Counted from the stretch's first letter, positions 3,426 to 63,604 are shown. The stretch is DNA of 64,000 bases from an uncultured Eubacterium sp. (GCA_900547255.1 URGC01000001.1:308-64307), one strand, 5' to 3'. Program-made: numbers and translations. Notes: a model not told the origin generated them from the sequence alone.

Positions 3426-3782
3426 ATGGCAAGAATTAAAGGCGGTATGAACGCAAAGAAGAAGCACAATAGAGTATTAAAGCTCGCTAAGGGTTATAGA
3501 GGAGCAAGATCTAAGCAGTACAGAGTTGCTAAGCAGTCAGTTATGAGAGCTCTTACAGAGTCTTATAAGGGCAGAAAGCAGAAGAAGAGACAGTTCAGAC
3601 AGTTATGGATTGCACGTATCAATGCTGCTGCAAGAATGAACGGTTTATCATACAGCAAACTTATGCATGGTCTTAAGCTCGCTAATGTAGATCTTAACAG
3701 AAAGGTATTGTCAGAGATGGCAATCAACGATGCTGAAGGATTTGCAAAGCTTGCAGAGCTTGCTAAGTCTAAGCTTGCATAA
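3426..3782 (+). CDS. rplT: 50S ribosomal protein L20
   Basis: [37 protein letters not shown]... is the canonical L20 sequence. A GAAGGAGG RBS precedes it. Confidence 0.95.
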
Positions 3783-3812
3783 TTATTAGTTTAATAATAA
3801 TTGAACATATTT

Positions 3813-3850
3813 AAAGGTCTTTGTCAGTTTTCTGGCAAAGACCTTTATTA
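3813..3850 (+). terminator. Intrinsic terminator of the infC-rpmI-rplT operon
   Basis: Hairpin AAAGGTCTTTGTCAG/CTGGCAAAGACCTTT followed by a T-rich tract. Confidence 0.6.
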
Positions 3851-3939
3851 GATTATGTGAATTATTTATGAAAATGCTATGAAATATGCATGTTTTATGG
3901 TATTATTATCAAGATTGTTTGAAATCGGAGGATATATAT

Positions 3940-4995
3940 ATGCGTAATATTAGTGCAGTTAAGAAGATAAGTGCATGCATAGCACTTGTTTTGCTTACTA
4001 TTGGAACATTTGGATGTAATACCAAGATTACACCATCATATGGATATAATCCAACAGATTATGTCCAGTTAGGTGAATATAAGGGACTGAAATATTCAGT
4101 TGATACAGATGCCATTGAAAAGAAGCTTATCAATGACAGAATTACAAGTGACCAGAAGGATAATATAACATATCAGGAGGTAACATCGAGAGGTGCTGTA
4201 GATACTGATAAGGTTACACTTGATTTCTCTGCTTCTATTAATGGACTTACAGTAGATGGATTCTCAGATAATGATTATGAGCTTGTACTTGGAACAGATA
4301 CATTCTATATTGATGGATTTGTTGATGAACTCTACGGAATGAAGACAGGAGAGACTAAGATTGCACAGCTTGTTGTTCCTGAGACATTTACACAGGCATC
4401 GGAGTATGCAGGCAAGAAGATTGTATTTGAGATTACAATGACTAAGATTGAGCAGCCTAATGTGCCAATGATAACAGATGCATATGTACAGGCACATTTT
4501 GATGTCAATACTGTTGATGAGTACAGACAGAAGATTAAGGAAGAACTCGCTGATTCTATTAATGAGGAGATAGAGGAGCAGACAAAGAATGCAATTCTTA
4601 TCCAGCTTCAGGAGGTCTGCAAGGTTACTGGATATCCAGAGGATTTCCTTAATACTAAGAAGGATGAATATGAGTCATCTATCAAAATGTATTCTCTTAT
4701 GAAGAACCAGACTGTTGATGAGTACTGTCAGGAGAATATGAACATGTCATTTGACGACTATGTTAAGAAGAACATAGCCCAGGAGATGATTATATGTGCG
4801 ATTGCTGAGAAAGAGGGCATCACAGTAACTGAGTATGAGTACAAGGGAGACCTTGAGCAGTTCGCATCTGATAATAACTATGGCGATAAGACAGCATTTG
4901 AGGAAAAATATGGCAAGGACAAGATTGTAGTTGCGATGGTTATGCAGAAGACACAGGATTTTATTATTGAAAATGCAGTAAACACACAGAAATAA
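3940..4995 (+). CDS. Lipoprotein with FKBP-type PPIase/trigger-factor-like domains
   Basis: ORF 3886..4995. GGAGG RBS before ATG 3940. Signal peptide with lipobox LTIGTFGC. Trigger factor FKBP-like and C-terminal-like segments are present. Confidence 0.6.
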   Translation: MRNISAVKKISACIALVLLTIGTFGCNTKITPSYGYNPTDYVQLGEYKGLKYSVDTDAIEKKLINDRITSDQKDNITYQEVTSRGAVDTDKVTLDFSASINGLTVDGFSDNDYELVLGTDTFYIDGFVDELYGMKTGETKIAQLVVPETFTQASEYAGKKIVFEITMTKIEQPNVPMITDAYVQAHFDVNTVDEYRQKIKEELADSINEEIEEQTKNAILIQLQEVCKVTGYPEDFLNTKKDEYESSIKMYSLMKNQTVDEYCQENMNMSFDDYVKKNIAQEMIICAIAEKEGITVTEYEYKGDLEQFASDNNYGDKTAFEEKYGKDKIVVAMVMQKTQDFIIENAVNTQK

Positions 4996-25881: not shown

Positions 25882-26640
25882 ATGAAATTACTTGAAATAA
25901 ATAATCTTGGAAAGAGCTTTGGAGAAAATGAGGTCTTAAAGGATATAACAATGAGTGTTGATAAGGGCGAGGTTGTAGCTATCATAGGTCCATCTGGCTC
26001 TGGTAAATCAACACTTCTTAGATGTGCCACACTCCTTGAGACTATGGACAAGGGAAGCCTTAAGATCGGTGGAAGGCTTGTTGCAACTGATACTAATGGC
26101 AAGTCAGAATATGTATCGAAGAATGAGTTAAGACAGATAAAGAGCCTTTTCGGGCTTGTATTCCAGCAGTTTAACTTATTCCCACATTACACAGTTCTTA
26201 AAAATGTTATGGATGCGCCGGTTGTTGTTGAAAAGAGGAACAAAGCGGATGTTGAGAAGGAAGCAAGGGAGCTTCTTTTAAAGGTAGGTCTCGAGGGCAA
26301 GGAGAACAGTTACCCATGCCATCTTTCAGGTGGACAGCAGCAGAGAGTTGCCATAGCAAGGGCACTTGCCATGAATCCTGAGATACTTTTCTTCGATGAG
26401 CCTACATCAGCACTTGACCCTGAGATAACAGCGGGTATTCTTAAAGTTTTAAAGCAGCTCGCTGCTGAGAAGATGACAATGGTTATAGTTACACATGAGA
26501 TTGACTTTGCAAGAAAGGTTGCTGACAGGGTTATCTTCATGGATGGAGGGGTTATTGTGGAGCAGGGTGCGCCGAAGGATGTGCTGGATAATCCGTCCAA
26601 TGAAAGAACAAAGGCATTCCTGCAAAAACTTGATTTGTAA
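25882..26640 (+). CDS. Amino-acid ABC transporter ATP-binding protein (GlnQ-like)
   Basis: Walker A GPSGSGKST, signature LSGGQQQRVAIARAL and Walker B FFDEPTSALD. Confidence 0.9.
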   Translation: MKLLEINNLGKSFGENEVLKDITMSVDKGEVVAIIGPSGSGKSTLLRCATLLETMDKGSLKIGGRLVATDTNGKSEYVSKNELRQIKSLFGLVFQQFNLFPHYTVLKNVMDAPVVVEKRNKADVEKEARELLLKVGLEGKENSYPCHLSGGQQQRVAIARALAMNPEILFFDEPTSALDPEITAGILKVLKQLAAEKMTMVIVTHEIDFARKVADRVIFMDGGVIVEQGAPKDVLDNPSNERTKAFLQKLDL

Positions 26641-26700
26641 TAAAGGGAAAAATCTCCTGCATGCTGGCACCGGCTATAGGCTGTGGCGGTCTGACCGTCC

Positions 26701-26920
26701 CACAGTCTGACAGCGGTATGCGCATATATAATTAATTCAGGTCCTTTGTGTCTAGCTACTCTAAGGCTGGCACGACAAAGCTTATTAAATCCGCCTCGCT
26801 AAAAACGCACTTCGTTTGGACGTTTAGCAGGCGGATTAGCTTTTGTCTAGCACCAGCCTAAGAGTAGCACGACAGTCGTCAGGAATTAATTATATATACG
26901 CATACCGCTGTCAGGCTGTG
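26701..26920. repeat. Copy 1 of a ~220-bp structured palindromic intergenic element
   Basis: Outer 38-bp inverted repeat (26701-26738 / 26883-26920) encloses a ~145-bp imperfect palindrome. It shares identical GGCACGACAAAGCTT and GCTAAAAACGCACTTCGTTTGGACGTTTAGCAG runs with 57079-57297. Confidence 0.7.
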
Positions 26921-26993
26921 GAAGTTTTACTTGTATTTTTGGTGGGAAGTCTTTATAATCTAGGTATGTATACTTTGACGCGGAGGATGGCGT

Positions 26994-37655: not shown

Positions 37656-37716
37656 TACAATTAATAATTAAAAATATAAGCATGGGCATATTATGTATTA
37701 TTAATGTGCTCATGCT

Positions 37717-37778
37717 TCAGACTGTAGACAAAGTGGCACTAGGATTCGCATCTTAGTGCCACTTTGTCTACAGTCTGA
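37717..37778. repeat. Long perfect palindrome (25-bp stem, 12-nt loop) between convergent glyA and argG
   Basis: TCAGACTGTAGACAAAGTGGCACTA / TAGTGCCACTTTGTCTACAGTCTGA. Confidence 0.6.
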
Positions 37779-37780
37779 AA

Positions 37781-37808
37781 GGCTGTGCATTTAATGCACA
37801 GCCTTTTG
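37781..37808. terminator. Bidirectional intrinsic terminator (glyA/argG)
   Basis: GGCTGTGCATTTAATGCACAGCC followed by TTTTG. A T-tract is also present on the other strand. Confidence 0.65.
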
Positions 37809-37857
37809 AGCCTTACGGCGGGAGTTTTATGTGTTTGTTTTAATTTATGTTTATAAA

Positions 37858-42526: not shown

Positions 42527-43762
42527 ATGAGAGTACTTAAAAAGACTATAATTACAGTCCTTACATTGTGCATGGTGATGGGGCTGACTGCGTGTGATAA
42601 AAATGCAGCCAAGAGCCTTGATATAGAAGAGCCTGTCACAATAAATGTATGGTATCAGGACGATAAGTTCACAGATTATATTGATTATGTTGCTAAGACA
42701 TTTTCTAAAGATAATAGTCTTGTGACTATTAATTATCAGCTTGTTACAGAGGATAATTATGTTGAGCGTCTGTATGAGGAGAGTGTTCACGGCAATAATG
42801 CACCAGATATATTTTTTATGAATACAGATAATCTTGAGAAGGCAAGCCTTATGGGATTAATCTCTGAGAACAGCTCATACAGCCAGTATTATACAGAGAA
42901 GAATTACAGCAATACAGCACTTACTGCTGCTTCTTATAAGGGTAAGCTTTATGGATATCCAATCAGCTTTAATGTGGCATTTCTGCTGTACAATGCAGAT
43001 GTTGCATCTGAGGTTTCTAATTTTAAAGAGTTAGAGAATTATTGTAATAATTATATAGTTGATGATAAGAATCAGGACATAACAAATCTTGTATTGTGGA
43101 ATCCATCGGATATGTTTATCAATTATGCATTTTCATGCAACAGTATTAATCTTGGCGGGACAAGTGGTGACGACAGCAGCCAGCTTTCAGTCAACAAGGA
43201 GCTTCTGTCAAAGGGCATGGAGAATTTCTTAAAGCAGAAGGATATATTCGGCATTGAGCGTAATGCTTACACAATAGAAGAGATTATGAAGCAGTTTGCA
43301 GATGGCAAGGTGGCGTACACAATAACGGATGCCAATCATCTAAAGACGGTTACTGATTCATCAATCAATTATGGTATATGTGATGTACCTGATTTTGATG
43401 GCGGGCTTAACACTGTGAGCATATCAGAAAATATCTGTGCATTTGTTAATCCATATGCAGGTCAGTTAAAGACAGCCAAGGCTGTTGCTCATGCACTTAG
43501 TTACGACTATTCTGATTCGCTATATGATTTGTCTGGGGCAGTAAGCTCTAAGATTGTAAAATCTAAAGATGCATCATATGCGACACGTATGGGTAAACTG
43601 TATGATATCTATGCATCCTCTGATGTTAAGGCAAAATTCATGGGAAGTGCATATTTTTACACCAAATATGACATCATGATTCATCAGGTCTGGGATGGCG
43701 AAGATTTCAAGACAACTATAGACAGCTTTGTCAACGAGATACAGAACAAAAAGAATAATTAG
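42527..43762 (+). CDS. Extracellular solute-binding lipoprotein (ABC transporter SBP family 1-like)
   Basis: ORF 42515..43762. A GGAGG RBS is embedded before ATG 42527. Lipobox LTAC. Confidence 0.55.
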   Translation: MRVLKKTIITVLTLCMVMGLTACDKNAAKSLDIEEPVTINVWYQDDKFTDYIDYVAKTFSKDNSLVTINYQLVTEDNYVERLYEESVHGNNAPDIFFMNTDNLEKASLMGLISENSSYSQYYTEKNYSNTALTAASYKGKLYGYPISFNVAFLLYNADVASEVSNFKELENYCNNYIVDDKNQDITNLVLWNPSDMFINYAFSCNSINLGGTSGDDSSQLSVNKELLSKGMENFLKQKDIFGIERNAYTIEEIMKQFADGKVAYTITDANHLKTVTDSSINYGICDVPDFDGGLNTVSISENICAFVNPYAGQLKTAKAVAHALSYDYSDSLYDLSGAVSSKIVKSKDASYATRMGKLYDIYASSDVKAKFMGSAYFYTKYDIMIHQVWDGEDFKTTIDSFVNEIQNKKNN

Positions 43763-43820
43763 TATATTTTTCCTGCCATTGGGGTATAGTATTAATAATT
43801 TATTAATACGGAGGTGCCAG

Positions 43821-44267
43821 ATGGCAGGATTTTTAATTGCTATGTTAAGCGGTGCGCTTATGAGTATTCAGGGAACATTCAACACAGGGGTTACCAAGGC
43901 GAGCAGTATATGGGTGGCGGCAGGTTTTGTGCAGTTGACGGCATTTGCGACATGCCTTGTTATGTGGCTTGTAAACGGAAGACCACAGATTATGGGGTTA
44001 TTCACTGTTACACCTAAGATTGCCCTGCTTGGCGGTGTTATAGGTGCATTCATAACTTATACAGTTATTCAGGCTATATCATCACTTGGTGTTGCAAAGG
44101 CAGAGATAGTTATAGTTATCTCGCAGATTGCGGTGGCATATGTGATAGAGCTTCTGGGGTTGTTTGGAAGCGAAAAGGCAGCATTTTCGTGGGTGAAGGT
44201 GCTGGGAATCGGGATGTCGATAGCGGGGGTGATTGTGTTTTCTTTGTGTGGGAATACGGGGAAATAG
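43821..44267 (+). CDS. DMT-superfamily small membrane protein (DUF606/YdcZ-like)
   Basis: ORF 43728..44267. GGAGGTGCCAG precedes ATG 43821. Four to five TM helices. Confidence 0.6.
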   Translation: MAGFLIAMLSGALMSIQGTFNTGVTKASSIWVAAGFVQLTAFATCLVMWLVNGRPQIMGLFTVTPKIALLGGVIGAFITYTVIQAISSLGVAKAEIVIVISQIAVAYVIELLGLFGSEKAAFSWVKVLGIGMSIAGVIVFSLCGNTGK

Positions 44268-44274
44268 AGGAGGA

Positions 44275-44355
44275 AATTCTCACGCCTGCCTGTGCCAAGC
44301 CATGGCGGCTGACAGCTATTTCCGCCACGGCTTGGCACAGGCAGGCGTGAGAATT
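44275..44355. repeat. Long near-perfect palindrome (34-bp stem, 13-nt loop CTGACAGCTATTT), no U-tract
   Basis: AATTCTCACGCCTGCCTGTGCCAAGCCATGGCGG / CCGCCACGGCTTGGCACAGGCAGGCGTGAGAATT with one mismatch. Confidence 0.6.
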
Positions 44356-44455
44356 TATAGCGGTTTGCGTTGTCAAGAGCGGTGAGATGTAATATAATGA
44401 AAATACTTTTATGACAGTAGATAATACATAGGTTAATTTGGAGGATAAGATTAGG

Positions 44456-55866: not shown

Positions 55867-57048
55867 ATGAACGAATTTCAGTTAAAGTATGGATGTAACC
55901 CTAACCAGAAGCCTGCCAGAATATTCATGGCAGATGGAAGTGATCTTCCAGTTGAGGTTTTAAATGGCAGACCAGGATATATCAACTTCCTCGATGCGTT
56001 CAACGGATATCAGCTTGTAGCAGAGCTTAAGCGTGCAACAGGACTTCCAGCAGCAACATCATTCAAGCATGTATCTCCAGCAGGTGCAGCAGTAGGTCTT
56101 CCACTCTCAGATGTTGAGAAGAAGATATACTGGGTTGATGAGGCAATTGGGGAACTTTCACCACTTGCGTGTGCATATGCAAGAGCAAGAGGTGCTGACA
56201 GAATGTCTTCATTCGGCGATTTCATATCTCTTTCAGATGTGTGTGATGTGGCAACAGCCAAGCTTATACAGCATGAGGTTTCAGATGGTATCATAGCTCC
56301 AGGTTATGATGATGAAGCTTTAGAGATATTAAAGTCTAAGAAGAAGGGCAATTATAATATTATCAAGATTGACCCAGCTTACAAGCCAGAACCAATTGAG
56401 AGAAAGCAGGTATTTGGTGTGACATTTGAGCAGGGAAGAAATGAATTTGTTATCAACGAAGAACTTCTCTCTAACATGGTTACAGAGAATAAAGAATTCA
56501 CTAAGCAGGCAAAGATTGACCTTATCATTGCGCTTATCACATTAAAGTATACACAGTCTAATTCAGTATGCTACGCTAAGAATGGACAGGCTATCGGTAT
56601 CGGTGCAGGACAGCAGTCAAGAATTCACTGTACAAGACTTGCCGGACAGAAGGCTGATAACTGGTATCTCCGTCAGAATCCTAAAGTTCTTGCACTTCCA
56701 TTCAAAGAAAATGTTGGACGTGCAGACAGAGATAATGCAATTGATTTATATATCGGTGACGAATATGAAGATATTCTTGCAGATGGCAATTGGGAAAGAG
56801 TATTTACAAGCAAGCCAGAAGTATTCACTAAGGAAGAGAAGAGAGCATGGCTTGATGGTAATACAGATGTAGCCCTTGGCTCAGATGCATTCTTCCCATT
56901 TGGAGATAATATTGAGAGAGCATTTAAGAGTGGTGTTAAATATATTGCACAGCCAGGCGGCTCAATAAGAGACGATAATGTTATTGAGGCATGCAATAAG
57001 CATAATATTGCTATGTGCTTTACAGGAATGAGATTATTCCATCATTAA
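55867..57048 (+). CDS. purH: Stand-alone AICAR transformylase domain protein (PurH C-terminal domain only, no MGS/IMPCH domain)
   Basis: AICARFT motifs (KHVSPAGAAVG, C-terminal ...FFPF.D.I). Only 393 aa and lacks the N-terminal cyclohydrolase domain. Confidence 0.75.
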   Translation: MNEFQLKYGCNPNQKPARIFMADGSDLPVEVLNGRPGYINFLDAFNGYQLVAELKRATGLPAATSFKHVSPAGAAVGLPLSDVEKKIYWVDEAIGELSPLACAYARARGADRMSSFGDFISLSDVCDVATAKLIQHEVSDGIIAPGYDDEALEILKSKKKGNYNIIKIDPAYKPEPIERKQVFGVTFEQGRNEFVINEELLSNMVTENKEFTKQAKIDLIIALITLKYTQSNSVCYAKNGQAIGIGAGQQSRIHCTRLAGQKADNWYLRQNPKVLALPFKENVGRADRDNAIDLYIGDEYEDILADGNWERVFTSKPEVFTKEEKRAWLDGNTDVALGSDAFFPFGDNIERAFKSGVKYIAQPGGSIRDDNVIEACNKHNIAMCFTGMRLFHH

Positions 57049-57078
57049 TCTATTGAAATTTTACTGCCGGCAAGAGGC

Positions 57079-57297
57079 GGCTCCCCGCATGGTACAGTGT
57101 GCTGTAATTACCTGCTGGGTTTCCTTGTCTAGTGCCTCTAAGCACGGCACGACAAAGCTTTATTCAAGCCGTCTGCTAAAAACGCACTTCGTTTGGACGT
57201 TTAGCAGACGGCTTATGCTTTGTCTAACACCGCGCTAAGAGACACACGACAAGTCAACATGCAGGTAATTACAGCACACTGTACCCTGCGGGGAGCC
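57079..57297. repeat. Copy 2 of the ~220-bp structured palindromic intergenic element
   Basis: Outer 37-bp inverted repeat (57079-57115 / 57261-57297), unrelated in sequence to copy 1, encloses a core ~85% identical to copy 1. Confidence 0.7.
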
Positions 57298-57328
57298 GGA
57301 TGCTAAAGGTGTAAGCTTCAATGATGTA

Positions 57329-62709: not shown

Positions 62710-62713
62710 ATAA

Positions 62714-62775
62714 ATTGCCCCAAGGACTGAGAGGCAGCCAGTTACAGACAGCCTCTCAGTCCTTGGGGCAATTTG
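62714..62775. terminator. Bidirectional terminator with 21-bp stem
   Basis: TTGCCCCAAGGACTGAGAGGC / GCCTCTCAGTCCTTGGGGCAA. The right arm overlaps the last codons of the convergent gene. Confidence 0.6.
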
Positions 62776-63586
62776 GATTGATGTTATTGAGATAGTTTCT
62801 GAAATTCTTAGAAAGCCGTATGCTGTTATAGATTGATGCGTACTGTATATGTGACAGTTCGTCAATGTAATTAGTCTCATATGTCACATCTGTTTTATCT
62901 GAGAGGAGTGCGACAGCTTTGTTATACGCAATTGCTGCATACAGTTCGCTCTGATAATTGCCGAGTATGAAATTACCATTGATGTGTATATACGCCTGAT
63001 ATAGCGTATGTCCTTTTTTTTCAATTTTTCTGACACCGCAGAATCTGTTGATTACACGGATGTTTTCATAGCGGTAATCCCTTGAATCTCCATTGACATA
63101 TATGTAATCCCTTCCTTTGACGGAATGTGCACGTATTCCGTATCTGTTAAGGATGCTTGTCTGCATTCCGTAGTCATTGACATAGTAATATCCTCCTCTT
63201 GATATTATTCTGTGATTAGAATAATAGAATAAATCATCCGTGTTAAATATAAGAACATTATTCTCAGCAAGAAAATATAAGAAAAATCTATCACAAAGAT
63301 ATATAGGAGTCTTTATGTACATGCCATTATCCCTGTAGTTGATAAGTGTTATATATTTGTGGAATGGTATGGATAATTCATCAGAATAAGATGTCACATG
63401 GAGGTCTTCATTGATGTAGTGTGATGAAGTGTCATTGAGTATGGCAATGGCTTCATCATAGACCCTGGAAGCTGTTGTTATATCATCAAAGCTTCCAAGA
63501 CTTATGTGTTTATTTTTGTGAGTTATTGAAACTCTGTAGTATTCTGTATTGCCTTTTTTCTTAGCTATATATACACCAGTAGGCAT
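62756..63586 (-). CDS. AP2-domain / HNH-like (homing-endonuclease-type) protein
   Basis: Two AP2/integrase-type DNA-binding-like segments (YRVSITHKNKHISLGSFDDITTASRVYDEA; YQAYIHINGNFILGNYQSELYAAIAYNKA) and a central HNH/NUMOD-like region. GGGAGG precedes ATG 63586. Confidence 0.55.
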   Translation of the reverse strand: MPTGVYIAKKKGNTEYYRVSITHKNKHISLGSFDDITTASRVYDEAIAILNDTSSHYINEDLHVTSYSDELSIPFHKYITLINYRDNGMYIKTPIYLCDRFFLYFLAENNVLIFNTDDLFYYSNHRIISRGGYYYVNDYGMQTSILNRYGIRAHSVKGRDYIYVNGDSRDYRYENIRVINRFCGVRKIEKKGHTLYQAYIHINGNFILGNYQSELYAAIAYNKAVALLSDKTDVTYETNYIDELSHIQYASIYNSIRLSKNFRNYLNNINPNCPKD

Positions 63587-63604
63587 ATATCCTCCCAAAT
63601 GTGT

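Follow-up and report, generated by a model that had tools for sequence, protein, structure and literature searches.

What is a palindrome of well over 200 nucleotides doing directly behind a stop codon, and why should its centre be nearly the same from site to site when its stem is different at every one of them? This question is raised by a stretch of 64,000 nucleotides of DNA from an uncultured Eubacterium sp. (the window), in which the spacer between a glnQ-like ABC ATPase gene and relA folds into a single long hairpin (copy 1), and in which a second such hairpin (copy 2) lies behind a PurH-type gene. We followed these two hairpins to their relatives in other genomes. All functional statements on the element that are made below are derived from its sequence.

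An earlier note on this DNA had described copy 1 as an extended hairpin with a near-perfect outer stem, containing two mismatches of which one is compatible with wobble pairing, and this description stands: the paired arms (Table 1) differ from full complementarity by one G·T and one A·C. The predicted fold of the 231-nt region around copy 1 reaches -127 kcal/mol on the plus strand and -134 kcal/mol on the minus strand, as compared to about -59 kcal/mol for shuffled sequences (z about -16), and copy 2 likewise folds into a long hairpin with a z of about -16. The location of copy 1 between the ABC ATPase and RelA/SpoT genes agrees with the Pfam assignments and with the orthologous loci, which encode the same 252-aa ABC ATPase protein. 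Copy 2 is flanked by the PurH gene and a gene for a HAD hydrolase, and in the flanks that were examined, neither a transposase nor a reverse transcriptase adjoins either copy, as had been stated. An identical 33-mer (GCTAAAAACGCACTTCGTTTGGACGTTTAGCAG) and an identical 15-mer (GGCACGACAAAGCTT) are indeed found in both copies, and the window contains exactly two occurrences of a 21-mer from the tip, with an expectation of 0. The compensatory change from CCGCC/GGCGG to CCGTC/GACGG between the copies is present as well, whereas the identity of the interiors, given as ~85%, amounts to 77-80% upon global alignment.

Table 1. Coordinates of the hairpins, their parts and their neighbouring genes in the window, with the consensus structure of the core.
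Feature	Position	Strand	Remarks
glnQ-like polar amino-acid ABC transporter ATPase	25882..26640	+	Pfam ABC_tran; ORF list; upstream co-oriented gene of copy 1
Orphan outer left arm, copy 1	26641..26699	+	homologous to outer left arm of orthologue L003
Copy 1, whole hairpin	26700-26921	+	39-nt arms 95% complementary, 144 nt between
Copy 1, paired left arm	26700..26738	+	39 nt
Copy 1, conserved core	26739..26882	+	144 nt; sequence, folds, 41-sequence alignment, consensus structure, pair counts
Copy 1, junction loop	26739-26749 opposite 26874-26882	+	core base
Copy 1, GTC/GAC helix	26750-52 with 26871-73	+	
Copy 1, 2x2 loop		+	TA opposite AC
Copy 1, P2	26755-26770 with 26853-26868	+	central CTAAG/CTAAG A·A mismatch (pseudo-dyad)
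Copy 1, loop beyond P2		+	CAC opposite TAGCA
Copy 1, P3	26774-81 with 26839-47	+	
Copy 1, loop beyond P3		+	TTATTAAA opposite TTA
Copy 1, P4	26790-26807 with 26821-26835	+	
Copy 1, apical loop	26808-26820	+	
Copy 1, paired right arm	26883..26921	+	39 nt
Probable decayed member	44274..44356	+	35-bp-stem hairpin with A-run and T-run
PurH-type AICAR formyltransferase	55867..57048	+	Pfam PF01808; upstream co-oriented gene of copy 2
Copy 2	57078..57298	+	arms 57078-57115 and 57261-57298, core 57116-57260
Decayed member	62712..62774	-	core and inner arms deleted; 63-bp hairpin abuts stop of minus-strand gene 62756-63598
Consensus, base of core			10x10 internal loop, UGGUCCUUUG opposite CAGUCGUCAU
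Consensus, next inward			3-bp GUC/GAC helix, then 2x2 loop UA opposite AC
Consensus, P2			16 bp, centre CUAAG opposite CUAAG with A·A mismatch
Consensus, loop P2-P3			CAC opposite UAACA
Consensus, P3			GACAAAGC with GCUUUUGUC
Consensus, loop P3-P4			UUAUUAAA opposite UUA
Consensus, P4			freely covarying 6-bp part, then GCUAAA(AA)CG with CGUUUAGC
Consensus, apex			small covarying stem-loop, GCACUUCGU or GCGCUUCGC
Mosaic comparison	L014 6037-6246 vs L037 6272-6434 vs L027 4927-5138		

Copy 1 is a truncated member. The TAA stop codon of the ABC ATPase gene ends at 26640, and sequence homologous to the left arm begins with the very next nucleotide, but the right-hand partner of this outer arm is deleted in this genome, and no complement to the orphan left arm was found to the right of 26921. 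The orthologue of copy 1 at L003 has arms of ~100 nt. In copy 2, 29 nt separate the stop codon of the PurH-type gene from the arm, and no run of 4-6 T follows the right arm. Its orthologue, L016(-), has an identical core and arms that are 89% identical.

The two hairpins belong to a larger family. One pattern scan of species-representative genomes yielded 17 copies, every one from two Lachnospira MAGs, and a further 33 came from metagenome contigs, which were scanned with an independent pattern drawn from the tip, though diverged relatives may have escaped such exact-pattern scans. In all fetched sequence, a profile search (nhmmer), which recovered every full copy, distinguished 44 different full copies at ~30 genomic sites, besides several fragments; copies from related strains among these are not independent observations. 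No Rfam 15 family matched anywhere in the window at the gathering score, and at E<=10, the segment 26600-27000 had only two chance matches to miRNAs (12-16 bits). Neither a BLASTN search with the core in annotated phages and plasmids nor four pattern scans of viral contigs (two with the tip, one each with the left and right half) found anything. In the literature that was searched, we found no description of the repeat in Lachnospira or other Lachnospiraceae, which is not proof of its absence. The supposition of an undescribed, multi-copy structured element has thus held up, and we apparently are dealing with a family of hairpin repeats of 220-400 bp in a narrow group of gut Lachnospira.

The position of the family members with respect to genes is strikingly regular. 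In 38 of the 44 copies, a co-oriented ORF upstream ends between -27 and +59 nt from the left arm, with a median of 8 nt; the upstream gene runs in the same direction at 27 of the 29 sites that could be evaluated, and where a convergent gene lies on the other side, the gap to it has a median of 35 nt. Among the remaining copies, one concerns an ORF of 52 aa and one is ambiguous. Only L040 (oriented 2167-2516) and L042 (oriented 3754-4040) are antisense to neighbouring tandem genes, and these two may be the products of inversions. The arms of L040 contain internal repeats and are perfectly paired (97/97). At L022, two full elements of opposite orientation lie back to back (3698-3947 and about 3976-4231), each adjoining the stop codon of its own convergent gene. 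Since 11 of the 44 copies (at 9 of the ~30 sites) are oriented against the local GC skew, orientation follows the gene rather than replication. Among orthologous pairs, there was no polymorphism in orientation.

No promoter-like site was predicted in or beside the two window copies, and a TATA-like, AT-rich segment that occurs in many inner arms is only semi-conserved. Without a predicted promoter, one would by default expect the element to be transcribed together with the upstream gene, and the notion of a free-standing sRNA, which had been put forward for copy 1, is disfavoured. Most copies open with an A-run and close with a T-run, usually of 4-6 T (e.g., AAAAAACTCCC...GGGAGTTTTTT). Both window copies lack this T-run, and a scan with a simple terminator consensus called no terminator at either of them. 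A ribosome terminating at a stop codon can reach a hairpin that begins no more than ~15 nt away. In E. coli, REPs within 15 nt of the stop are reported to stall ribosomes and to lower expression, according to work cited in PMC12306157.

Within the core, an alignment of 41 copies over 178 columns (the core plus 10 nt of each arm) contains 53 invariant columns and 38 that are nearly so, and about 90 of 163 positions of the asymmetric pseudo-dyad core are nearly constant. Around P2, both strands read GUC-UA(..)-helix-(C)AC-GAC, which gives this part of the core an approximate two-fold symmetry. P4 comes in site-specific variants that are common to orthologues. By eye, neither the K-turn, hammerhead or twister motifs nor a conserved micro-ORF could be fitted to the core. 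The tetranucleotide CGTC occurs within the junction loop on the 3′ side and does not form a terminal tag.

Three cores carry an additional mini-hairpin of ~50 bp (L002 489-540, L014 6081-6135 and L027 4972-5023), and a related hairpin is found at L006 601-642. The mini-hairpin consists of TGTAAACACTTAG...CTTAGTGTTTAC plus YAYGCAGRG..ATG and has a CTTAG/CTTAG centre with a T·T mismatch. In all three cores, it is inserted exactly at a conserved TG^YCTA box, in the left half of one core and in the right half of the other two, which hints that this box is a cleavage or target site. One of these cores furthermore is a mosaic (L014b), in that its flanks, outer arms and half-cores are those of L037, whereas its P3-P4 centre with the mini-hairpin is that of L027, which lies at another site (Table 1). 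The mosaic amounts to one clear case of gene conversion among members of the family. In their inner arms, L014b and L037 show dense mirrored differences. Such exchange implies that part of the conservation of the core could be due to homogenisation and not to selection, but the fact that orthologues have site-specific P4 variants in common speaks against homogenisation being frequent.

In contrast to the core, the outer arms, which are 38-129 nt long, are different at every site. They nevertheless are ~95% paired within each copy (2799 matches), and the mismatches over all copies comprise 52 G·T, 49 A·C and 45 transversions. The outer stems had previously been held to be unrelated, which is not quite the case: local alignments between arms of different sites have a mean score of 9.35, as compared to 7.24±0.07 for shuffled and 7.31 for reversed sequences, and the similarity extends to the outer ends, including TAAAACTTCCCGCGCCTGCAGGCAG. 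The arms with their terminator-like ends thus are diverged homologues, which argues that the whole hairpin was the ancestral unit and that its arms have drifted since.

How, then, does the pairing persist? In the larger alignment of 41 copies, the covariation that two copies had suggested was confirmed. The consensus structure is paired in 95.6% of cells, against 82% in shuffled alignments and 29-43% when the partner was slid, and 30 of 49 core pairs show compensatory changes, with 263 compensated cells as opposed to 75 in shuffles. Wobble pairs are rare and no more frequent than A·C mismatches, the core having ~30 G·U cells and ~27 A·C cells, and neither fold energies nor G·U counts revealed a consistent preference for one strand. 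Comparison of 11 orthologous pairs revealed 52 mirrored differences, meaning that both arms had changed in a complementary manner, besides 45 differences in a single arm and 9 shared mismatches; had the arms evolved independently, only a handful of mirrored differences would be expected by a rough estimate. The mirrored changes include transversions and multi-base patches, and even tandem duplications within arms are mirrored (L024, L040). Arms of orthologues are 69% to 98% identical and the flanking coding DNA 90-96%, such that the arms diverge at roughly the neutral rate while their complementarity stays. A hypermutation of the arms like that by DGRs was considered and rejected, because all substitution types occur and the rates fit roughly neutral divergence.

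The equal frequency of G·U and A·C together with the mirrored changes points to a copying between arms at the level of DNA, and not to selection on RNA. The simplest reading of these sequence comparisons would be that one arm repeatedly serves as template for the other, as in quasipalindrome correction. Template switching at quasipalindromes is associated with replication and renders imperfect inverted repeats more perfect (PMC7202029). For the private stems, selection on RNA structure is thus not the best explanation. The asymmetries of the core, on the other hand, could not be upheld by template switching, and must be maintained by selection or by exchange between copies.

With respect to the origin of the family, the sites themselves are informative. 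In ~97 kb from relatives whose flanking protein is 85-92% identical, nhmmer found no family member, even at E<=10. Their glnQ-relA spacer, for which the identity of the flanking protein is 85-91%, measures 96-179 bp and contains neither the element nor any other hairpin, with the stop codon in the same place, and the spacer downstream of purH lacks the element as well. These empty sites, which had been proposed as a check, indicate that the element was gained within a narrow Lachnospira clade and directly behind the stop codon. Direct repeats of the kind left by target duplication are not evident at the ends, which consist of A- and T-runs in copies that are old. Neither the window nor the loci examined contained an autonomous partner, nor were there two sites with common arms, as would be expected of recent copies. 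Private arms, no target duplication and no partner make the spread look old, and mobility is deduced only from the dispersal and from the empty sites in outgroups. A 1.6-kb IS splits one member between P3 and P4 (L032 555-2161), and its 490-aa ORF was considered as the autonomous partner; it encodes a DDE transposase of the IS5/IS1182 type (PF13586, PF05598) that has its own ends, and the IS is a mere interruption.

Some members have decayed, and they have done so along two routes. In the first, a central deletion spares the arms. The hairpin at 62712-62774 is of this kind: the window is collinear with L016, full elements are present at the orthologous sites in L016(+), L002 and L036, and the reverse complement of the hairpin matches 41 nt of the left arm of L016(+) with a score of 35 (control maximum 10). 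The hairpin at 44274-44356 starts 7 nt past the stop of a YdcZ-like gene (43728-44267), and its arm aligns to family arms with a mean score of 9.0 (6.7 for the reversed control). By this weak similarity and by the composition of its arm, it is probably a core-less remnant, and so is L036 7053-7131. In the second route, two deletions flanked by microhomology leave only the apical part, a P4 hairpin between A- and T-rich tracts. This is seen at L002 6145-6202, the orthologue of copy 2, and at L023 7232-7299 and L048 4140-4207, which are orthologues of L011 and L015. The products of both routes resemble bidirectional terminators, which suggests that the host needs termination at these sites. Long hairpins without a core are rare (~4 in 477 kb, as compared to ~45 with a core).

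Several other hairpins were noted in the course of this comparison. Between the convergent genes for SHMT and argininosuccinate synthase, the window has three successive hairpins (37679-37812), of which the middle one (37716-37779, 30-bp stem) contains the words CTTAGTG and TTTGTCTAC, which recall the core and the mini-hairpin; a relationship is unproven. A more distant Lachnospira has an unrelated hairpin upstream of a MatE gene (L057 1378-1521), with 24-nt arms (96% paired), a structured interior of 96 nt and a fold z of -3.9. In distant relatives, AT-rich hairpins with stems of ~25-37 bp follow the same ABC ATPase gene (L054 3800-3910, L055 3770-3850). It may be that this bacterial group commonly has terminator hairpins of unusual length.

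Which explanation best accommodates these observations? We see about even chances that the hairpins are what their sequences suggest, namely an old, clade-restricted, palindromic and non-autonomous element with a built-in bidirectional terminator, the pairing of which would be preserved by templated correction at the DNA level. Against this, the two-fold symmetry of the core could be read as a site on DNA. As folded single-stranded DNA or as a cruciform, the core would then mimic a two-fold site for a dimeric recombinase or for a transposase of the HUH or tyrosine type encoded elsewhere, in the manner of REPIN-RAYT or attC, and the enzyme would maintain and occasionally copy the elements. The pseudo-dyad, GTC-TA-(16 bp, central A·A)-CAC-GAC on both strands over ~29-34 bp, speaks for such a site, as do the absence of a wobble bias in pairing on either strand, the three insertions of the mini-hairpin exactly at TG^YCTA, and the attC-like place at gene 3′ ends in fixed orientation. 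However, no candidate enzyme was found in the window or the loci, where the only transposase seen is that of the IS5/IS1182 type which interrupts one copy, orientation follows transcription and not replication, unlike in known ssDNA transposons, and there are neither cassette arrays nor recently copied members with common arms, so that we regard a DNA site of this kind as doubtful. A cis-acting RNA domain in the 3′-UTR would account for the sense orientation at 27 of 29 sites, for the start at a median of 8 nt past the stop codon, and for invariant loop and bulge nucleotides beside freely covarying pairs. In that case, a dimeric RNA-binding protein or RNase would dock on the core, for instance to control mRNA decay or to couple translation termination to the fate of the mRNA, and the long stem would be selected as RNA. 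That orthologues have site-specific P4 variants in common fits as well, because it indicates that each site kept its core independently. Yet G·U makes up only ~1.5% of paired cells, equal to A·C and unlike any RNA family known to us, the rate at which mirrored transversions build up is about neutral, and the core is dispensable at several sites. Judging by these sequence features, an RNA domain of this type would seem unlikely.

The earlier note had also listed three more specific candidates. One was an insertion element that targets hairpin loops, in which case the ~145-bp core alone would be mobile and would have entered the loops of pre-existing host hairpins with unrelated outer stems. The sharp boundary between the conserved core and the private arms, the existence of core-less long hairpins in the window and the movement of a central core segment between two sites on at least one occasion are all compatible with this idea. 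It nevertheless is very improbable, because the arms including their outer ends are diverged homologues, the hairpin at 62712-62774 arose by deletion from an element that three other lineages have in full, core-less long hairpins are rare, and the empty glnQ-relA site of relatives has no hairpin that could have received a core. The other candidates were a stand-alone sRNA gene and a retron-like msr/msd ncRNA, to which an invertible promoter switch with inverted repeats may be added. A long structured hairpin with flanking inverted repeats and TATA-like, AT-rich segments in many inner arms would suit any of the three. In view of the missing Rfam match, the lack of a predicted promoter at the window copies and of a reverse transcriptase in the flanks examined, the ~30 dispersed sense copies at gene 3′ ends and the uniform orientation among orthologues, we give this group of explanations hardly any credence.

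Returning to the old palindromic element with its built-in terminator, its history and present role may be pictured as follows. The ancestral unit would have consisted of an A-run, a GC-rich arm, an AT-rich inner arm, the core of ~145 nt and the mirror image of these arms ending in a T-run, and the whole hairpin in effect would have been a portable bidirectional intrinsic terminator. It presumably spread in the ancestor of the clade and now would be fixed in sense orientation behind the stop codons of housekeeping genes. At present, it would be co-transcribed with the upstream gene and would fold into a very long hairpin. From its position and its A- and T-runs, this hairpin could be expected to end transcription and to protect the 3′ end of the mRNA. 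Template switching within the palindrome would keep the arms complementary, and the core may be constrained by a trans-acting dimeric factor or by a role at the RNA level, a constraint that would also account for the link between orientation and transcription. A near-palindrome that was a mere terminator should need neither a fixed orientation nor a conserved core, and both of these point to an additional function. Our most economical guess is a trans-acting dimeric protein that reads the core as folded RNA or as single-stranded DNA. In an extended form of this guess, which is speculative and rather improbable, the palindromes would correct themselves, the pseudo-dyad tip would be the site of a dimeric protein, and the two would form a Firmicute partnership akin to that of REPIN and RAYT, marking some thirty gene 3′ ends per genome. 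The tip-binding protein might be a domesticated transposase or recombinase, or else an RNA-binding or RNase factor. If true, a partnership between tip and protein would tie the termination of translation and of transcription to the fate of the mRNA right at the stop codon.

How does this element compare to known systems? REPs are long-lived and vertically inherited. They are palindromes of 20-40 bp with an unpaired GTAG or CGTC tag, and their copies are alike throughout (PMC3733652). They are multi-copy and extragenic, mostly lying downstream of genes, and are thought to form RNA hairpins that act in termination and stabilise mRNA (PMC3733652; PMC12306157). The Lachnospira element likewise is a multi-copy palindrome at gene ends, but it measures 220-400 bp, is conserved only in its apical 145 nt, has private stems and resides in a Firmicute host. 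To our knowledge, no RAYT is known from this host.

A second group for comparison is that of MITE-like repeats that bear terminators, such as Correia in Neisseria, BOX, RUP and SPRITE in Streptococcus pneumoniae, and bcr1 in the Bacillus cereus group. These are non-autonomous, hairpin-forming elements of ~100-300 bp that are co-transcribed and can terminate or stabilise transcripts. Their terminal inverted repeats are conserved, their copies are near-identical, and target duplications are seen. The Lachnospira element, in contrast, is variable at its ends, has no detectable target site duplication, and shows a near-invariant post-stop position and sense orientation. As for the features of a MITE, it has no terminal inverted repeats in common among copies, the arms being private with weak residual homology, but it does show presence and absence with empty sites in the glnQ-relA and purH-downstream spacers. 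With bidirectional intrinsic terminators, it has in common the A-run, the GC-rich hairpin and the T-run directly behind a gene, and decayed copies look identical to them, but stems of 38-129 bp and an apical domain of 145 nt far exceed what termination needs.

The attC sites of integrons are imperfect palindromes that lie directly 3′ of an ORF in a fixed orientation; recognition takes place on the folded single strand, which displays extrahelical bases and a pseudo-dyad pair of binding boxes. In attC sites, which measure 57-141 bp and form cassette arrays beside intI, the outer R''/R' boxes are conserved and the centre varies. The Lachnospira element is the inverse of this, in that its centre is conserved, its outer parts vary and its copies are dispersed behind housekeeping genes. 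The ncRNA of retrons (msr-msd) resembles it by having a long hairpin within an inverted repeat that differs between loci. Retrons occur at one or a few loci per genome, though, and have msr and msd parts with a priming G beside the a2 repeat, whereas the present element has dozens of copies at gene 3′ ends, forms one continuous hairpin and comes without an adjacent reverse transcriptase or an msr-like part. For PATEs and other ssDNA transposons derived from IS200/IS605, an orientation tied to replication would be expected, whereas that of the Lachnospira element follows the upstream gene. Invertons should be found in both orientations, and no orthologous pair of the element differs in this respect.

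By its likely action, the element would thus probably group with REP, REPIN and Correia, yet it falls outside these families by the features that define their members. It would add to the palindromes at gene ends a counterpart from a Firmicute gut commensal, with an architecture that is inverted with respect to theirs, a conserved tip on private stems. Automated tools will label these Lachnospira elements as invertons, sRNAs or assembly breakpoints. With 52 mirrored as compared to 45 single-arm differences and no wobble bias, they provide a natural record of how long palindromes stay perfect. They also call for caution in RNA discovery based on covariation, as compensatory changes in a DNA palindrome do not by themselves signify selection on RNA structure. 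As regards the organism, the placement behind stop codons, the orientation linked to transcription and the constant, asymmetric core together point to a specific and testable function.
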